This document shows positions 1,595-16,552 of a stretch of DNA of 17,004 nucleotides, piece by piece. Within the stretch, counting starts at the first letter, position 1. Every line of letters starts with the position of its first letter. The notes beneath the pieces were generated by a model. That model had not been told where the DNA came from. It saw only the letters and a list, made by a program, of their open reading frames with translations, and searched no databases. The stretch spans positions 1-17,004 of the forward strand of contig CAYYWT010000024.1 in assembly GCA_964475435.1 (NCBI GenBank), given 5' to 3'. This stretch comes from an uncultured Eubacteriales bacterium. Its GTDB lineage: Bacteria > Bacillota > Clostridia > TANB77 > RGIG9151. A program made the translations under genes and the position numbers.

Positions 1595-1736
1595 TAATAG
1601 ATAAAAAGTGGCTATAAAGGACTCAAGAGTTAATAAAGCTGTGTGCTTTATACTAATGATAAACGAGTTTTTTACGTCCCTTTTGTGTTAATATTTTAGA
1701 AAAAATGCCGATTTATTAAAAGAGGTGGGAAGGATT

Positions 1737-3035
1737 ATGAAACTAAAAATTAAAATTTTAATTGGAATTTTGGTAGCGTCAATTACAATTTGCGGGATTT
1801 TTATGTTGGTTTTTGAAAATGCTGAGTTTACCAAAATAGTTATTGCGAGAAATGAAGAACAGAAGAAACTTGATGAAGAAGCTCAGAAGAAGGCGGAGGA
1901 AGAAAAAAGGAAACAAGATGAGTATATTGATTCACAAGCTCCGTATGTAGAATATGACGTAAAAAACCAATATTATCAAGGACTAGCTTTAGTAAAGAAA
2001 GACGGGAAATGGGGATATATAGATAAAAACGGACACGTAAAAATTCCTCTTATTTACGATTCAGCGAATAATTTTATGGGAGAGAAAATCGCGAAGGTTA
2101 AAAAGGACGGATTATGGGGATACATAAATACTGAAGGAAAAGAAGTGATACCGGTTGATTACTATTTTTGCGGAGAAATATCTAATGGTATAATCGCAGT
2201 AGGAAAAGGCGGTAAGTATGGATTTATAGATAGAAACGGAAATAAAGTATGTGATCTTTTATATGATAGAGTTGAACCATTTTCAAGCGAAGGAACAGCG
2301 AAGGTTATATTGGATAGGAAATTTGGATATATAAATGCTTCAGGAGTTGTAATAGTGCCGATAGAAAATCCGTCTAATGAAGAAAATAAAGACTTTACCG
2401 GAACTTGGAATAGAACAAAGACGCATTCATCACTCGGAGCTACGCTCGAGATAAATCATCAAATGGCGACATCGTTTGACTTTAAGTTAACATCTAATTA
2501 TTATTCAATAAGTGATACATTTGAAGGAACAGCAGAAATAACGTCTACCAATACAGCAACGTATGTTTACGGATATGGAACTAATCAAGATAAAATTACG
2601 TTTACAATAGTTGATGACTGGATGGAAATTACGTCAGTACTTGGAGGAAATCTTGATATGAGCTCTGAAAATACAATAATAGGAAAATTCGTGAAAGATT
2701 CGCCTGTATATGATAATGAAGGGTTAGTTGAACAATTATTTGCAAAACAAGATGTTTTAACCAGAATAAGACAAACAATAGGCGAAGAATTATACGAAGA
2801 CGACTTCTTATATGGATTAAGGAACGGATTATATGAAGTTAGTAAATTAAAAGATTCGTCAGTAATAAAAGGAACAGTGTACCATGTTTGGGTTCCGACG
2901 ACTGAAAAAAATTATAAGCTTTTAGTAAATGATATGTATGTATACTTCTATTCAAAGAGTCAAGATATTTACAAAACGGACGATCCGGATAGACAGTCGA
3001 GAGTTCCTAGTGATATTACTTATGACGAAATTTAG
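1737..3035 (+). CDS. membrane-anchored WG (KWG)-repeat protein with an unassigned C-terminal domain
   Basis: ATG at 1737 lies behind AGAGGTGGGAAGG, so the track's GTG at 1725 sits inside the RBS. N-terminal TM helix and Lys/Glu-rich linker. At least four repeats of the D/GxWGYI(D/N)xxGxxVIP type (WG-containing repeat family). The last ~220 aa are beta-rich and unrecognised. Confidence 0.75.
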   Translation: MKLKIKILIGILVASITICGIFMLVFENAEFTKIVIARNEEQKKLDEEAQKKAEEEKRKQDEYIDSQAPYVEYDVKNQYYQGLALVKKDGKWGYIDKNGHVKIPLIYDSANNFMGEKIAKVKKDGLWGYINTEGKEVIPVDYYFCGEISNGIIAVGKGGKYGFIDRNGNKVCDLLYDRVEPFSSEGTAKVILDRKFGYINASGVVIVPIENPSNEENKDFTGTWNRTKTHSSLGATLEINHQMATSFDFKLTSNYYSISDTFEGTAEITSTNTATYVYGYGTNQDKITFTIVDDWMEITSVLGGNLDMSSENTIIGKFVKDSPVYDNEGLVEQLFAKQDVLTRIRQTIGEELYEDDFLYGLRNGLYEVSKLKDSSVIKGTVYHVWVPTTEKNYKLLVNDMYVYFYSKSQDIYKTDDPDRQSRVPSDITYDEI

Positions 3036-3066: not shown

Positions 3067-3074
3067 CCTAAATT
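3067..3074. repeat. left 8-bp direct repeat (CCTAAATT) flanking element copy A
   Basis: Identical to 3246-3253 and directly abuts the element terminus. Confidence 0.7.
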
Positions 3075-3245
3075 GTTACTAGTCAGACTTAATTACTTAT
3101 CAAAAGATAATATCATTAGTTTTCCCGCTCAAACACGTCCTCGGAGAAAATTTTAACTGAAATTAATTATGAAATTTTCTCCGGTACGACTCGCTCTTTA
3201 AACTAATGATATTATCTTTTTAAAACAAATAGACTGAATAGTAAC
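3075..3245 (+). mobile_element. MITE-like palindromic element, copy A (171 bp)
   Basis: Terminal inverted repeats GTTACTAGTCAGAC / reverse complement GTTACTATTCAGTC. Perfect 21-bp internal inverted repeat (3102-3122 with 3199-3219). Central 11-bp hairpin (3143-3153 with 3172-3182). No ORF. A second copy lies at 15869-16042 in reverse orientation. Flanked by an 8-bp direct repeat. Confidence 0.7.
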
Positions 3246-3253
3246 CCTAAATT
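3246..3253. repeat. right 8-bp direct repeat (CCTAAATT) flanking element copy A
   Basis: Identical to 3067-3074. Confidence 0.7.
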
Positions 3254-3274
3254 TAACAAAATTGACTTTTTAGG

Positions 3275-3303
3275 TTGACTTTTGACGAAGATAGATTTAG
3301 AAT
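3275..3303 (+). promoter_or_regulatory. sigma-A type promoter of the aspS leader
   Basis: TTGACT (3275-3280), 17-nt spacer, TAGAAT (3298-3303). Confidence 0.6.
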
Positions 3304-3309
3304 AAGACG

Positions 3310-3534
3310 AAGGCGTTGATAAAGAGGAGTAAAATTAAACTGAGTTTAAGAGAGGAAACAGAGTTGGTGTGATGTTTCTAACTAAAGTAATTTGAAGACA
3401 CTTTTGAGCAGTTTCGTGATGAAGCGAGATCGTATGGTTACGTTATAGACTAAGAGTTAAAATGTGGGTGGTACCACGGAAGAGATACTTTCGTCCCTAG
3501 AGTAGTTTTTACTACTTTAGGGGCTTTTATTTTT
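3310..3534 (+). promoter_or_regulatory. T-box riboswitch leader, Asp specifier (GAC)
   Basis: Specifier-loop context GAA-GAC-A-CTTTTGAGCA (GAC at 3397-3399) parallels the classic GAA-NNN-A...GAGCA layout. AGAGA element in stem I. T-box sequence AAATGTGGGTGGTACCACGG at about 3460-3479. Terminator/antiterminator alternative lies just before aspS. Confidence 0.85.
3495..3534 (+). terminator. T-box leader terminator
   Basis: CCCTAGAGTAG (3495-3505) pairs with CTACTTTAGGG (3512-3522, one G-U), followed by CTTTTATTTTT. Its 5' arm can pair instead with the T-box GGG. Confidence 0.8.
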
Positions 3535-3552: not shown

Positions 3553-5304
3553 ATGAATGAGTACAGAACGCATTATTGCAATGAACTTAGAATGGCTGAT
3601 GTTGGTAAAGAAGTAAGAATAGCCGGGTGGGTACAGACTATAAGAGATTTAGGATCTGTTATTTTCTTGGATATAAGAGATCATTTTGGTATTACTCAGG
3701 CTGTTATAACTGAAGATGAGGAAAATATGAAGATTATTAGAGGGATAAATACGGAAAGTACGGTTTCTATTACCGGTACTGTTCGTGAGCGTTCTAATAA
3801 AAATCCTAATCTTCCGACAGGAGATATTGAAATTGTTCCGTCTAAGATTACTGTATGCGGTAAGTCTAAAAACGTTTTGCCGTTTGAGATTAATATTGAT
3901 CAAGACGTAAGAGAAGATTTAAGACTTGAATATAGATTCCTTGATTTGAGAAATGAGAAAATTCATAATAATATTGTGTTTAGAGCGAAGATTATGAAAA
4001 CTGTTCGTGAAATAATGGACGATATGGGATTTATTGAGGTACAAACGCCTATTTTAACAAGTTCTTCTCCGGAAGGAGCAAGAGACTTTTTAGTTCCAAG
4101 TCGTCTTCATCCGGGAGAGTTTTATGCTTTGCCTCAAGCTCCTCAACAGTTTAAACAACTTTTGATGATGTCAGGCTTTGATAAGTATTATCAAATTGCG
4201 CCATGTTTTAGAGATGAAGATCCTAGAGCTGACAGATCGCCGGGAGAATTTTATCAAGTGGATTTGGAAATGTCATTTGCGACTCAAGAAGATGTGCTTA
4301 AGGCTGTTGAAAATGTTGTACTAAATACGTTTAGAAAGCATACAAATTGGTCAGTTAGCGAAGATGGATTAATTAAAATTCCGTTTAAGGAAGCTATGAA
4401 GAAATATGGTTCAGATAAACCTGATTTAAGGAATCCGCTTATTATCGAGGATGCTACTGAACTATTTAAAGATACTGAATTTGCTGCGTTTAAGGACAAG
4501 ACTGTTAGAATGATTATTGTTCCGAATTGTGCTACTCAAACTAGAAAGTTCTTTGACCAAATGACTGAGTTTGCAGTTAATGAGTGTGGCGCAAAGGGAC
4601 TTGGTTATATTAAAGTTAATGAAGATATGACGTTTAATGGTGGAATAACTAAGTTTGTTACTGAAGAAATGAGAAAAGTATTGTTAGATAAAGTTCATGC
4701 AAATGATGCTGTTTTCTTTATGGCTGATACTGAAGAAGCGATTAATAAAATTGCCGGTGGAGTTAGAATTGAGCTTGGAAAGAGACTTGATTTATTAGAA
4801 AAGAATACTTATAAGTTCTGTTGGATAGTTGATTTCCCTATGTATGAAAAAGATGATGAAGGAAAGATAGAATTTAATCATAATCCTTTCTCGATGCCTC
4901 AAGGCGGACTAGAAGCGTTAAATACGAAAGATCCTTTGGATATTTACGCTTGGCAATATGACTTGGTATGTAATGGCTATGAGCTTGCGTCCGGTGCTGT
5001 TAGAAATCACGATGTAGAAATTATGGAGAGAGCGTTTGAAATTGCGGGTTATACTAAAGAACACGTTGAAGCTAAGTTTGGTGCTTTATATAATGCGTTC
5101 CAATATGGTGCTCCACCTCATGCCGGAGCTGCTCCCGGACTTGACAGAATGGTTATGTTACTTGCTCAAGAGGATAGCATAAGAGAAGTAATTGCTTTCC
5201 CGAAAAATAGTAAAGCTAGAGATTTACTTATGGGTGCACCGTCTAGAGTGTATAAAAATCAGTTGGATGATGTACATATTATGCTAAAACCTATAGAAAA
5301 ATAA
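3553..5304 (+). CDS. aspS: aspartate--tRNA ligase (bacterial type, with insertion domain)
   Basis: 583 aa. N-terminal OB anticodon-binding domain. Class II motifs FRDEDPRADRSPEFYQVD-like (FRDEDPRADRSPGEFYQVDLEMSF) and GLDRMVMLL. RBS GAGAGGAGAG. Asp T-box upstream. Confidence 0.97.
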   Translation: MNEYRTHYCNELRMADVGKEVRIAGWVQTIRDLGSVIFLDIRDHFGITQAVITEDEENMKIIRGINTESTVSITGTVRERSNKNPNLPTGDIEIVPSKITVCGKSKNVLPFEINIDQDVREDLRLEYRFLDLRNEKIHNNIVFRAKIMKTVREIMDDMGFIEVQTPILTSSSPEGARDFLVPSRLHPGEFYALPQAPQQFKQLLMMSGFDKYYQIAPCFRDEDPRADRSPGEFYQVDLEMSFATQEDVLKAVENVVLNTFRKHTNWSVSEDGLIKIPFKEAMKKYGSDKPDLRNPLIIEDATELFKDTEFAAFKDKTVRMIIVPNCATQTRKFFDQMTEFAVNECGAKGLGYIKVNEDMTFNGGITKFVTEEMRKVLLDKVHANDAVFFMADTEEAINKIAGGVRIELGKRLDLLEKNTYKFCWIVDFPMYEKDDEGKIEFNHNPFSMPQGGLEALNTKDPLDIYAWQYDLVCNGYELASGAVRNHDVEIMERAFEIAGYTKEHVEAKFGALYNAFQYGAPPHAGAAPGLDRMVMLLAQEDSIREVIAFPKNSKARDLLMGAPSRVYKNQLDDVHIMLKPIEK

Positions 5305-5332
5305 AAAAGGTGGACTTCAGTCCGCCTTTTTT
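5303..5332. terminator. bidirectional intrinsic terminator between convergent aspS and the minus-strand orphan gene
   Basis: A6, GGTGGAC (5309-5315), loop TTCA, GTCCGCC (5320-5326), T6. Confidence 0.8.
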
Positions 5333-5341
5333 ATTTAAAAA

Positions 5342-9064: not shown

Positions 9065-9517
9065 ATGTCAGCTTTAATCAACAAGATGTTGAATTTAGTC
9101 GGCTTCGATAATGAAGAAGAACTCATGGAAGAGGAAGGTTACAGTTCAAATACATCAAATAGTAATCAAGAAAATGTAAAGGGAAATGCTAATCCATTTA
9201 AGAAAAATTCTAAAGTGGTTAATCTTTCTGATGCGAATCAACTTAAACTAGTTGTTATGCAACCGAATTCATTTGATGATGCTCAAGATGTATGTGATCA
9301 CTTAAAGGAGAAAAAACCGGTAGTAATAAATCTGGAATATGCGGACAAGGATACTGCTAGAAGGCTTATTGACTTTTTAAGCGGTGCAGTTTATGGCATA
9401 GACGGTCATATTGAAAAAGTTTCTACGTCTATATTTTTGTTAGTACCTTATAATGTTGATATTTTAAACACAGCAAAAGAAGATAAAAACAAGGGAACGT
9501 TTTCCTGGATAAAGTAA
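9065..9517 (+). CDS. sepF: cell division protein SepF
   Basis: ATG at 9065 lies after CAGGGAGG, so the track's GTG at 9026 is an over-extension. The conserved SepF core is VVMQPNSFDDAQDVCDHLKEKKPVVINL...ARRLIDFLSGAVYGIDG. Confidence 0.9.
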   Translation: MSALINKMLNLVGFDNEEELMEEEGYSSNTSNSNQENVKGNANPFKKNSKVVNLSDANQLKLVVMQPNSFDDAQDVCDHLKEKKPVVINLEYADKDTARRLIDFLSGAVYGIDGHIEKVSTSIFLLVPYNVDILNTAKEDKNKGTFSWIK

Positions 9518-9602: not shown

Positions 9603-10037
9603 ATGCTTACACCACTTGAATTAGAAAAAAACGAGTTTAAAGGCGGAATAGGATATTCTAAGCGTTCGGTGAACGAATTTTATGATAAACTTAGAGCGGA
9701 TTATGAGACTATATATAAAGAAAATATTGAATTAAAGGATAAGATTTCGTTAATGAATGATGCGATTAGCCAGTATAAAGCTATGGAAGAAGTATTGAAA
9801 ACTGCTATGATAAATGCTCAAACTTCTGCTGAAGAAATTAAAAAGAATGCTCAGGAAAAGGCTGAAAATATAATCCAAGAGGCTGAATTTTTGGCTCAAA
9901 AGAATCGTGAATTTTCTAACCAAGAAGTTATTGACGCAAAAGCTGAAGTTGAGAATTTACGAAAAGAGATGCAAGTGTATAAAGCAAAGGTTGAGGCGAT
10001 TTTAAAGTCTCAAATGGAGATGCTAAGTGAGATATAA
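9603..10037 (+). CDS. divIVA: DivIVA-domain protein
   Basis: N-terminal MLTPLELEKNEFKGGIGYSKRSVNEF matches the DivIVA lipid-binding domain signature, followed by a coiled coil. Lies next to sepF. Confidence 0.85.
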   Translation: MLTPLELEKNEFKGGIGYSKRSVNEFYDKLRADYETIYKENIELKDKISLMNDAISQYKAMEEVLKTAMINAQTSAEEIKKNAQEKAENIIQEAEFLAQKNREFSNQEVIDAKAEVENLRKEMQVYKAKVEAILKSQMEMLSEI

Positions 10038-10065
10038 AAAAGGTGGACTAAAGTCCACCTTTTTT
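10036..10065. terminator. bidirectional intrinsic terminator between convergent divIVA and the BI-1 family gene
   Basis: A6, GGTGGAC (10042-10048), loop TAAA, GTCCACC (10053-10059), T6. The T-run overlaps the stop codon of the minus-strand gene. Confidence 0.8.
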
Positions 10066-10771
10066 AGTCTCTGCTTTTTCCGAAAATTCTAAGTAACTCT
10101 AAAAATAAATTGATAAAATCTAAATATAGAGTTAAAGCTCCGATTATTGCGAATTTTGTAGTAAATTCGTTGTCGTTTCCGATTTGATAAGCCATTGATT
10201 TTATTCTTTGGACATCATATGCCGTTAATCCTACGAAGATGACAATGGCAAGTATAGCTATTATAAATGAAAAAGTATTATTTAGTATAAATAGATTTAC
10301 TAAGCTTGCAAGTATTATTCCTACTAATCCCATAAGTAAAATCGAACCGATTTTAGATAAATCCTTCTTTGTAGTATAACCGTATAACGCCATTATTCCA
10401 AACATTCCGGCAGCTATAAAAAATACGCTGGCAATTGATTCGAAGGTATAGGCTAAAAATATGGTTGAAAGGGTTAGACCGTTTACTACTGAATATAGTA
10501 AAAATGAAGTTATTGCAGCACCCTTACTCATTTTATGGACTCTTGCGGTAAGTACGATTACCAGTACAAGTTCAGCAATTAAAAGCCCTATCCAATAAAT
10601 ATTATTGGTAAAAATTTTTTCTAGAAGCCAAGGCGTAGTAGCAGTATAAAACGCAGTGGCTCCGGTTACTAAAAGTCCGCCGAACATCCAACCGAAAATT
10701 TTTGAAAATACGTCTGAAATGCTTTGTTCTTTACTTCCGTACATATCTACAATTACATCAGAATTATTCAT
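10064..10771 (-). CDS. BAX inhibitor-1/YccA family (TMBIM) membrane protein
   Basis: 235 aa with about 7 TM helices. Family-typical C-terminal region (GLTAYDVQRIK ... GALTLYLDFINLFLELLRIFG). Strong RBS AAGGAGGGG. Confidence 0.85.
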   Translation of the reverse strand: MNNSDVIVDMYGSKEQSISDVFSKIFGWMFGGLLVTGATAFYTATTPWLLEKIFTNNIYWIGLLIAELVLVIVLTARVHKMSKGAAITSFLLYSVVNGLTLSTIFLAYTFESIASVFFIAAGMFGIMALYGYTTKKDLSKIGSILLMGLVGIILASLVNLFILNNTFSFIIAILAIVIFVGLTAYDVQRIKSMAYQIGNDNEFTTKFAIIGALTLYLDFINLFLELLRIFGKSRD

Positions 10772-15055: not shown

Positions 15056-15868
15056 TTGATAGACATAATTAATGCGATTATTTTTGGCGTAATTGAAGGG
15101 ATAACTGAATGGTTACCGATAAGTAGTACGGGGCATATGATTTTAGCTGAGGAATTTATTAAGCTAAATGTTACTCCGGAGTTTTGGAAGATGTTTTTAG
15201 TTGTAATACAACTTGGAGCGATACTAGCAGTGGTTTTATTGTATTTTAGGAAATTAAATCCTTTTGCGCTTAGTAAAACTGCTGAAGAAAAGAAACAAAC
15301 GTGGACTTTATGGTTTAAGGTTATCGTTGCATGTTTACCTGCTGCGGTAATCGGAATATTGTTTGAAGATACCATAGACATGTTTTTGGATAATTCGTGG
15401 GTAGTTGCAATTATGCTTATTTTATATGGTATATTCTTTATTTTAATTGAAAATAGAAATAAAAAGCCGGAAGTTACAGAGTTAAAGACCTTAACATATA
15501 AAACTGCCTTTGGAATAGGTTTGTTTCAAGTTTTAGCTTTAATTCCCGGAACTTCCAGGTCCGGCGCTACAATACTTGGAGCTATGTTAATTGGCACATC
15601 AAGAGAAATTGCTGCTGAATTTACATTCTTTTTAGCAATTCCGGTTATGTTCGGAGCTAGTTTTTTAAAACTGCTCAAATTTGGCTTTGCTTTTTCTGGA
15701 GCAGAACTTATGATATTGCTAGTAGGAATGGTAACTGCGTTTATTGTTTCGATAGTTGCAATTAAATTTTTAATGAACTATATAAAGAAAAATGACTTTA
15801 AAGTGTTTGGTTATTATAGGATTGTTTTAGGTATTTTGGTGTTGTTGTATTTTACATTTTGCATATAA
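15056..15868 (+). CDS. uppP: undecaprenyl-diphosphate phosphatase
   Basis: TTG start 7 nt after AGGAGGG. BacA/UppP motifs [20 protein letters not shown] and [10 protein letters not shown]. Polytopic membrane protein. Confidence 0.95.
15861..15868. repeat. left 8-bp direct repeat (GCATATAA) flanking element copy B; contains the uppP stop codon
   Basis: Identical to 16043-16050. TAA at 15866-15868 is the uppP stop. Confidence 0.7.
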
Positions 15869-16042
15869 TTACTAGTCAGACTGATTGTTTCAAAAAAAGA
15901 TAATATCATTAGTTTAAAGAGCGAGTTCCACAGTTGAAAAATTCAAAATAAAAATTTAATCGAATTTTTCAACGAGGACGTGTTTGAGCGGGAAAACTAA
16001 TGATATTATCTTTTTTATAAGTAATTAAATCTGACCAGTAAC
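15869..16042 (-). mobile_element. MITE-like palindromic element, copy B (174 bp, inverted relative to copy A)
   Basis: The reverse complement aligns end to end with 3075-3245 and includes identical 42-nt and 33-nt blocks. Perfect 21-bp internal inverted repeat. Central 12-bp hairpin (15933-15944 with 15962-15973). Flanked by an 8-bp direct repeat. One terminal base is ambiguous (TTACT versus GTTACT). Confidence 0.7.
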
Positions 16043-16050
16043 GCATATAA
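16043..16050. repeat. right 8-bp direct repeat (GCATATAA) flanking element copy B
   Basis: Identical to 15861-15868. Confidence 0.7.
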
Positions 16051-16070: not shown

Positions 16071-16100
16071 TTGACAATTTCCATAAAACAATGGTAAAAT
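16071..16100 (+). promoter_or_regulatory. rpsL (str operon) promoter
   Basis: TTGACA (16071-16076), 18 nt, TGgTAAAAT extended -10 (hexamer 16095-16100). Confidence 0.6.
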
Positions 16101-16138: not shown

Positions 16139-16552
16139 GTGCCAACCTTTAATCAATTAGTAAAAAAAGGAAGAACCACAGCTGAAAAGAAATCTACAGC
16201 TCCTGCTCTTCAAAAAGGCTTAAATTCAAAGAGAAAAATTGAGACAGACATTAGTTGTCCTCAAAAGAGAGGTGTTTGTACTGTTGTTAAAACTGTTACA
16301 CCTAAAAAACCAAACTCAGCTCTAAGAAAAATTGCCAGAGTTAGACTTACTAATGGAATGGAAGTTTCTTCATATATTCCTGGTATTGGTCATAACTTAC
16401 AAGAACACAGTGTAGTTTTAATCAGAGGTGGAAAGGTAAAGGACCTTCCAGGTGTTAGATATCACATTATCCGTGGAGTATTAGATACTGCCGGTGTTAA
16501 CGATAGAAAACAAGGAAGATCTAAGTATGGCGCAAAGAGACCTAAGAAATAA
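16139..16552 (+). CDS. rpsL: 30S ribosomal protein S12
   Basis: GTG start 7 nt after AAGGAGGTG gives (M)[11 protein letters not shown]..., the canonical S12 N-terminus. The [10 protein letters not shown] and GHNLQEHS motifs are present. The track's ATG at 16067 overlaps the promoter and is an over-extension. Confidence 0.95.

Follow-up and report, generated by a model that had tools for sequence, protein, structure and literature searches.

A probable MITE family inserted beside the rpsL and aspS promoters of an uncultured Eubacteriales bacterium

Introduction

The Correia (NEMIS) elements of Neisseria and the RUP elements of Streptococcus pneumoniae are intergenic elements of 100-160 bp with inverted repeats, which form long hairpins and are present in many dispersed copies. 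These elements often adjoin promoters or gene ends, and they duplicate a TA dinucleotide upon insertion. RUP is named in a review of MITEs (PMC10969869). A definition of prokaryotic MITEs has been given that includes a length below about 500-800 bp (PMC10969869, PMC11602168), and in "type II" MITEs the similarity is confined to the terminal repeats (PMC10969869). Chunjie from Geobacter and QMITE2 from Coxiella are type II MITEs with conserved inverted and direct repeats, variable cores and sizes, and truncated relics, and QMITE2 is mostly found just 3' of ORFs (PMC10969869). In Acinetobacter baumannii, MITEAba12 has been described as an AT-rich, non-coding element of 113 bp with inverted repeats and 9-bp duplications. 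MITEAba12 is mobilized by ISAba12, an IS with a DDE transposase, with which it has only the termini in common; it inserts in AT-rich targets and has a hot spot at one locus (PMC6382973).

In this study, a stretch of 17,004 nucleotides from an uncultured Eubacteriales bacterium, hereafter the window, was analyzed. Two copies of an inverted-repeat element, A and B, are present in this window (Table 1). These copies are very probably a prokaryotic MITE that is non-autonomous and would be moved by a transposase encoded elsewhere in the genome. Like MITEAba12, the element is short, AT-rich and non-coding, with terminal inverted repeats, long duplications and apparent hot-spot behavior. The two sequences are unrelated, with termini GGCTTTGTTGCACAAA in MITEAba12 and GTTACTAKTCAGACT here; the duplications are 9 bp and 8 bp, and the arms 16 nt and approximately 46 nt, respectively. 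Also, the parent IS of MITEAba12 is known and its transposition has been observed experimentally, whereas the element described here is read from sequence and no parent has been found. The Correia and RUP elements are similar in size, in being intergenic inverted-repeat elements and in folding into long hairpins near promoters or gene ends. However, they duplicate TA instead of 8 bp and are not similar in sequence, and in the present element neither a promoter signal directed outward nor a terminator signal was observed. With Chunjie and QMITE2 the present family shares the occurrence of subfamilies, here of 171-174 bp and 141 bp, that have only the termini in common, together with a half-copy relic, but the host phylum is another one and the sequences are unrelated.

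The Two Copies and Their Duplications

The anatomy of both copies largely agrees with that of prokaryotic MITEs. The copies are 171 and 174 bp long and the related subfamily is 141 bp long, the inverted repeats reach the ends of the elements, and there is no coding capacity. The elements are AT-rich and intergenic and are predicted to form a stable stem-loop (z -9 to -12). Perfect 8/8 duplications that differ between insertions (CCTAAATT and GCATATAA) flank the two copies, and the related element in contig L067 is flanked by GTTATAGA, offset by one C. In addition, there is presence/absence polymorphism at the uppP-rpsL locus, and at the WG-repeat/aspS locus contig L065 is element-free, which is not an exact empty site. 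Points against the MITE reading are that an autonomous IS with these termini was found in none of the databases searched, that the two full copies found differ by 17%, that the end adjoining the duplication varies by one nucleotide, and that the arms, approximately 46 nt, exceed the 4-30 nt usually quoted for MITEs.

Table 1. Positions in the window of the two element copies, their duplications and the neighboring genes and promoters.
Feature	Position	Strand	Details
MITE copy A	3075-3245	+	171 bp; 29.2% G+C; termini GTTAC...GTAAC
Left 8-bp duplication of copy A	3067-3074		CCTAAATT
Right 8-bp duplication of copy A	3246-3253		CCTAAATT
Apical stem-loop, copy A	3143-3182		GGAGAAAATTTTA / TGAAATTTTCTCC
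WG-repeat protein gene, upstream side of copy A	1725-3035		
Promoter of aspS T-box leader	3275-3303	+	TTGACT, 17-nt spacer, TAGAAT; 21 nt past right duplication of copy A
T-box leader of aspS, downstream side of copy A	3307-3501		Rfam match
uppP (undecaprenyl-diphosphate phosphatase)	15056-15868	+	NCBIfam match 1.4e-125; stop codon abuts copy B
MITE copy B	15869-16042	- relative to copy A	174 bp; 27.6% G+C; alignment, repeat search, hairpin z -11.7 and -9.3
Left 8-bp target-site duplication of copy B	15861-15868		GCATATAA; holds last codons and TAA stop of uppP
Left terminal inverted-repeat arm, copy B	15869-15915		Repeat finder
Apical stem-loop, copy B	15933-15973		Stem GTTGAAAAATTC / GAATTTTTCAAC; compensatory changes vs copy A
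Right terminal inverted-repeat arm, copy B	15994-16042		Repeat finder
Right 8-bp duplication of copy B	16043-16050		GCATATAA; runs on into conserved rpsL upstream block AGAAATATTTTC
rpsL promoter	16071-16100	+	TTGACA, 18-nt spacer, TG-TAAAAT; 11/12 matches
rpsL (ribosomal protein S12)	16139-16552	+	GTG start; downstream of copy B

In a global alignment, copy A and the reverse complement of copy B are identical in 145/175 columns (83%), versus 69% identity in the same orientation, the latter a consequence of the long, imperfectly palindromic form of each element. Copy B is therefore a full-length copy in the opposite orientation, as was already stated in the preliminary description of this DNA. 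Since the copies differ by 17%, neither of them is a recent copy of the other, and these two are the full copies found of this subfamily, both within the 17-kb window. A repeat finder delimits arms of 31-32 nt around an exact core, which extend to approximately 46-48 nt at 87-88% complementarity once the outer GTTACTAGTCAGAC motifs, present at all four ends, are included. The 20-mer AAAGATAATATCATTAGTTT is found exactly in 4/4 arms of copies A and B, with 0.02 matches expected by chance. The consensus of the termini is GTTACTAKTCAGACT and the elements run GTTACTAKTCAGACT...AGTCTGAMTAGTAAC, of which the end adjoining the duplication varies by one nucleotide among the copies (GTAA, GTAAC and GTAAC+C). 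The G+C content of the elements is 28-29%, compared with approximately 33% for the window.

Both copies are intergenic, between a stop codon and a promoter: copy A sits between the WG-repeat protein gene and the promoter of the aspS T-box leader, and copy B between uppP and rpsL. With slashes marking the element boundaries, the locus of copy B reads ...TTT TGC ATA TAA / TTACTAGTCAGAC...CTGACCAGTAAC / GCATATAA AGAAATATTTTC and, more widely, ...TAT TTT ACA TTT TGC ATA TAA / TTACTAGTCAGACTG ... ATCTGACCAGTAAC / GCATATAA AGAAATATTTTCTAAAATGGTTGACA... The preliminary description had proposed that copy B has its own 8-bp repeat and that the left repeat carries the last codons and the stop of uppP. 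Both proposals hold: GCATATAA is perfect at 15861-15868 and 16043-16050, and the TAA stop lies inside its left occurrence. The left end is ambiguous by 1 nt, as copy B starts with TTAC, compared with the G...C termini (GTTAC...GTAAC) of copy A, so that there are two readings: the duplication is 8 bp long and copy B has lost the terminal G, or it is 7 bp long and position 15868 has changed from G to A. The end of the uppP reading frame has indeed been kept, as was noted earlier, but this is not a special property, since it follows automatically from any target duplication. Beside copy B, the rpsL promoter is intact and begins 20 nt past the right duplication; all relatives have kept it.

Exact 8-mer matches across a spacing of 160-185 nt occur at 7.8e-5 of the window positions, and two such matches lie exactly at the element boundaries, and are therefore not due to chance. 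This agrees with the earlier argument that two loci with different duplicated 8-mers and the same boundaries make chance very unlikely. Of the AT-rich 8-bp target that had been suggested, the length of 8 bp stands; the AT-richness is plausible but not established from three duplications (CCTAAATT, GCATATAA and GTTATAGA).

The ORFs overlapping copies A and B encode 20-43 aa only, and none of them is credible. A short ORF is found in the same frame in both copies (3073-3156 on the plus strand, 27 aa, and 15969-16046 on the minus strand, 25 aa) with a shared ...KDNIISFPAQTRPR; the start codons differ between the copies and lie partly in flanking DNA. This ORF is most likely a by-product of DNA conservation. 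A domain search of the ORFs of the window revealed no transposase, integrase or recombinase gene.

Three close TTGAC motifs (TTGACTTTTTAGGTTGACTTTTGACG) are present at 3262-3287, just downstream of copy A and before the aspS T-box leader. A well-spaced -10 box is found for the middle one only.

Empty Sites and Assembly Support

Many related assemblies encode an S12 protein identical to that of the window, and the related contigs derive from human-gut metagenomes. The nearest named relative of the AspS of the window is annotated as "MAG: Clostridia bacterium" (82% identity). A comparison of the uppP-rpsL junction in related strains had been suggested in the preliminary description, and at least eight related contigs have an element-free junction with a single target-like sequence (L012-L016, L019-L021, L138 and L145; spacer 73-148 bp). 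The empty junction is ...TTTAACATAAGAAATATTTTC in L012 and its close relatives and ...GGGGCATACAAGAAATATTTTC in L019, L021 and L145. In these contigs, a single GCATA-like target precedes the conserved block AGAAATATTTTCTAAA.. (G/C)GTTGACAATTTCC and the TTGACA rpsL promoter, and the target-like sequence reads ...GTAATTTAACATA/AGAAAT in the L012 group and ...GGGGCATACA/AGAAAT in L019, L021 and L145. The element-free form of the window junction would read ...TTTTGCATATAAAGAAATATTTTC...; the relatives fit the pre-insertion sequence that had been predicted (...TTTTGCATATAA/AGAAATATTTTC), and in none of the relatives compared is GCATATAA naturally repeated without the element, which had been named as an observation that would contradict an insertion. 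In the closest uppP relatives (94%), the C-terminal tail is longer and different genes follow, and the pre-insertion junction is therefore inferred from somewhat more distant relatives.

The insertion of copy B is not an assembly artefact, because the independent Logan assembly SRR10277277 of the same strain has an identical UppP and the same TAA/TTACTAGTCAG junction. Its contig ends 55 nt into the element, and short-read contigs typically end at repeats, as this one does inside copy B. For copy A, the closest relative found is L065 (AspS 94%), in which no element separates the WG-repeat gene from the T-box promoter. The exact empty site is not recoverable, because L065 also lacks approximately 38 nt that are present at this position in the window.

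Related Elements and the Site Upstream of rpsL

The termini were searched in relatives, using BLAST and a fuzzy search over roughly 250 kb, which resulted in two more members. In L067 (UppP 91%), an element of 141 bp is present at 10423-10563 (GTTACTATTCAGACTTAAAT...ATTTGAGTCTGAATAGTAAC; region 10415-10572), flanked by the 8-bp repeat GTTATAGA. The termini of this element, GTTACTATTCAGACT, are as in the window copies (15-20 nt alike), while its core is unrelated, richer in G+C and predicted to form multiple hairpins (z -7.9). One extra C adjoins its right end, before GTTATAGA. The sister contigs L068 and L069 end inside an element of this type. Elements that share only the terminal 15-20 nt and each have an 8-bp duplication thereby fit the description of type II MITEs. 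In L067, too, the element ends where its flanking repeats begin, apart from the extra C; a mismatch between the two in other copies had been named in the earlier text as refuting. Together with the empty junctions, this supports its proposal of independent transposition events with 8-bp duplications.

The second member is found in L018 (2828-2903) and L071 (4682-4757), in which UppP is 92-93% identical. It is a relic that consists of the right half of a window-type element (approximately 76% identical), and its left half is replaced by an ordinary terminator, GCCTAGG...CCTAGGC-TTTTTT. Relative to copy B the relic is inverted, and 9 nt separate its end from the conserved AGAAATATTTTC block that precedes rpsL. 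The junctions read ...AGTAAC GCATATAA AGAAAT in the window, ...AGTAAC C GTTATAGA AGAAAT in L067 and ...AATAAC G GCGGTGAA AGAAAT in L018, and thus three different elements end 8-9 nt before the same AGAAATATTTTC block. These are not one inherited insertion, because the orientation in L018 is opposite, the core in L067 is unrelated and the adjacent 8-mers differ. Copy B and the L018 relic were also considered as a single orthologous insertion; this was rejected, as those outer portions of the repeat that are specific to each arm are inverted, and different 8-9-mers adjoin the two.

The presence of a subfamily with the same termini and of an inverted, decayed copy at this position suggests that it is an insertion hot spot. 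The -35 motif GGTTGAC starts 18 nt past the duplication at copy B (rpsL) and 19 nt past that at copy A (aspS T-box). The transposase might select its targets non-randomly and insert at a constant distance before the -35 box of strong housekeeping promoters, although we regard this as rather unlikely. It could equally be that the spacer offers only 10-20 nt of neutral DNA, in which the surviving insertions pile up. If promoter targeting were true, it would be a case of promoter-proximal targeting in bacteria, loosely analogous to the Ty3/Tf1-type targeting in yeasts.

In this clade, the uppP-rpsL spacer is also a hot spot more generally, in which gene cargo is found and rearrangements have occurred. 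In multiple relatives uppP is followed not by rpsL but by variable genes, namely a 4.4-kb island in L067, located between uppP and the MITE, and map or LRR genes in L008, L009 and L147. An L067 island bounded by two elements was considered and rejected, as no second element or matching repeat is present at its left edge. In L143 and L144, an asnS-like gene instead of uppP precedes rpsL, and the junction is still ...ATTTAACATAAGAAAT, as at the end of uppP in L012. In the closest uppP lineage (P0008), neither rpsL nor a further copy was found within 7 kb downstream.

The C-terminal tail of UppP is hypervariable. In the window it ends in ...LLYFTFCI (15840-15868), and in the closest UppP relatives (P0001-P0008, 91-95% identity) in ...FSTGLLVA, ...INVGLMA or ...VSTGAIA.

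Hairpin Structure

Copy A is predicted to fold into one long hairpin of -51 kcal/mol (z -9.2), and copy B into a long hairpin on either strand (-60 and -58 kcal/mol; z -11.7 and -9.3). From the outside in, the predicted fold comprises an outer stem, a variable bulge, a perfect inner stem of 21-23 bp, an asymmetric conserved internal loop, which is the source of the polarity of the element in the predicted fold, and an apical stem of 13-14 bp. In the two-sequence consensus fold of copies A and B, 51 pairs are kept and none is broken. Three pairs have changed on both sides, all of them in the apical stem (G-C to U-A, A-U to U-A and U-A to A-U), and one-sided compatible changes are found in two further apical pairs and in five pairs across the whole fold. 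Based on two sequences only, this pattern is suggestive, but not proof, of maintenance of the hairpin itself. The hairpin could be kept because it is needed by the transposition machinery or for replication, or because of an action of the transcript.

At copies A and B, no terminator-like U-tract, no outward promoter signal and no excess of promoter-like sites were observed. For this reason, and because the copies have opposite orientations to the flanking genes, no regulatory role is assigned; any effect on expression would be conjectural. In Rfam 15 no corresponding family was found, since a search of the whole window at the gathering score resulted in the aspS T-box only, and at an E-value threshold the best match of copy B (E 0.76) was a plant microRNA, which is a chance match.

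Mobilization and Alternative Explanations

In the proposed mechanism, a transposase encoded elsewhere would recognize the GTTACTAKTCAGACT ends and excise or copy the element. The enzyme, presumably of the DDE type, would cut the target with an 8-bp stagger, and repair of the gaps would result in the flanking 8-bp direct repeats. Copy B would have landed in the short spacer between the uppP stop and the rpsL promoter, where the duplication would have regenerated the stop on the left and left the promoter on the right untouched. One such transposase would serve several non-autonomous passengers with common termini. We infer the DDE chemistry, as well as mobilization in trans; the DDE class is the only one known to give inverted-repeat ends with fixed-length duplications.

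The parent IS and further copies were searched for in multiple databases. A scan of the GTDB representative genomes with the 20-mer gave six single chance matches, without a copy or a parent IS, and a degenerate 21-mer gave 40 single matches in JGI metagenomes and two in IMG/VR, which are also attributed to chance. These matches were rejected as element copies, as BLAST similarity extends at most approximately 36 nt past the pattern (83-88% identity) and the two that were inspected are coding sequence. A match in L061 was likewise rejected, as it lies inside a transporter gene and is due to chance. The terminal 15-mer gave 65 singles in IMG/VR without a convincing inverted partner. BLAST of both subfamilies and one arm against PLSDB resulted in insignificant short matches only (E >= 0.8), and BLAST of copy A against phage records gave no match. 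An autonomous IS with these termini was thus found in none of the GTDB representatives, JGI metagenomes, IMG/VR, PLSDB or phage records. The IS families with 8-bp duplications include IS256, ISL3, IS1595, IS6 and IS66, and the termini of the element could be matched to none of these. As the database searches were empty, the family appears to be undescribed and narrowly distributed. On this basis it may be called a new MITE family of a well-known, ordinary kind.

The copies could also be regarded primarily as a functional structured RNA or DNA hairpin, for example a terminator, a processing site or a small RNA, that has been duplicated and whose spread and conservation reflect selection for its function. 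Such a function would suit the very stable hairpins predicted on either strand, the apical stem with three double compensatory and two one-sided compatible changes and no broken pair, and the location of both copies between a gene end and a strong promoter. However, Rfam has no such family, U-tracts and terminator-like sites are lacking, promoter-like sites are not overrepresented, and the copies are in opposite orientation relative to the flanking transcription. Moreover, the 8-bp duplications and the clean empty sites require inserted mobile DNA, and this explanation is therefore very unlikely as a primary one. A MITE could have such a function in addition, and this reading is no replacement for the MITE explanation.

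The remaining alternatives concern the way in which the DNA moved. To our knowledge, elements of Y1 transposases give no target duplication and have subterminal hairpins instead of inverted repeats to the very ends. Here, three elements have 8-bp duplications, the inverted repeats begin at the first base, and the window holds no Y1 or RAYT gene. A REPIN or an IS200/IS605-type palindrome, moved as single-stranded DNA by a Y1 (HUH) transposase or RAYT with TTAC as the target or cleavage motif, is thus extremely improbable, although the elements start with (G)TTAC, finish with GTAA(C), are palindromic and have strong single-strand hairpin potential. IS608 inserts 3' of TTAC, and the TTAC ends are a superficial resemblance to this type. 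A recombination site or scar at a hot spot for cargo exchange, integron-attC-like or DNA of an island boundary, that does not transpose independently would agree with the highly variable uppP-rpsL spacer (the L067 island and the other genes after uppP in L008, L009 and L147), with the different gene that precedes the same junction in L143 and L144, and with the position of copy A, where a relative has a 5-kb insert. Against this, each window copy is a plain insertion with a perfect duplication on its flanks and without cargo beside it, and at the left edge of the L067 island there is neither another element nor a repeat that matches. An integrase or recombinase gene was found neither in the window nor among the genes called on the contigs of the relatives. 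In addition, attC sites have the layout RYYYAAC...GTTRRRY, of which the end motifs GTT...AAC found here are the reverse. This origin is highly improbable.

As a MITE family, the elements account for contig breaks and odd intergenic hairpins, which aids annotation, and they can be used as a strain marker. Only two features go beyond the routine: the rpsL-promoter-proximal site has been used more than once, and the changes in the apical stem are compensated. If these features were due to targeting and selection, and not to a lack of neutral space, they would bear on the choice of safe sites beside essential, highly expressed genes.

Other Repeats in the Window and Its Relatives

Multiple other repeats were observed in the window and in its relatives. 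In L065, approximately 150 bp occur twice (4440-4640 and 9250-9400), comprising the end region of the WG-repeat gene, the aspS T-box promoter and the start of the leader. The two repeats flank a 5-kb gene block (radical SAM, NUDIX and PPDK_N-like) that the window lacks, and the arrangement looks like an insertion with a long flanking duplication. In L143 and L144 (both 140-385), a different long palindrome of approximately 240 bp (GGGGCTGTAAAAAACTCA...TGAGTTTTTTACAGCCCC) is present in a 560-bp spacer upstream of rpsL. One base past the uppP stop, the 33-bp sequence GTTACTATTTAAACAATTAGTCTGTTCAGTAAT is found at L009:3827-3859 (= L147:10827-10859, L148:3900-3932). With 2-4 mismatches per end, it looks weakly like two degenerate element ends head to head, possibly a mini relic or footprint. 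In the window itself, near-identical (87-94%) bidirectional terminator-like hairpins are present at 5296-5334 and 10029-10066, AAAAAAGGTGGACT(TC/AA)AGTCC(G/A)CCTTTTTT. These hairpins close aspS and the DivIVA gene and are a repeated terminator module unrelated to the MITE.
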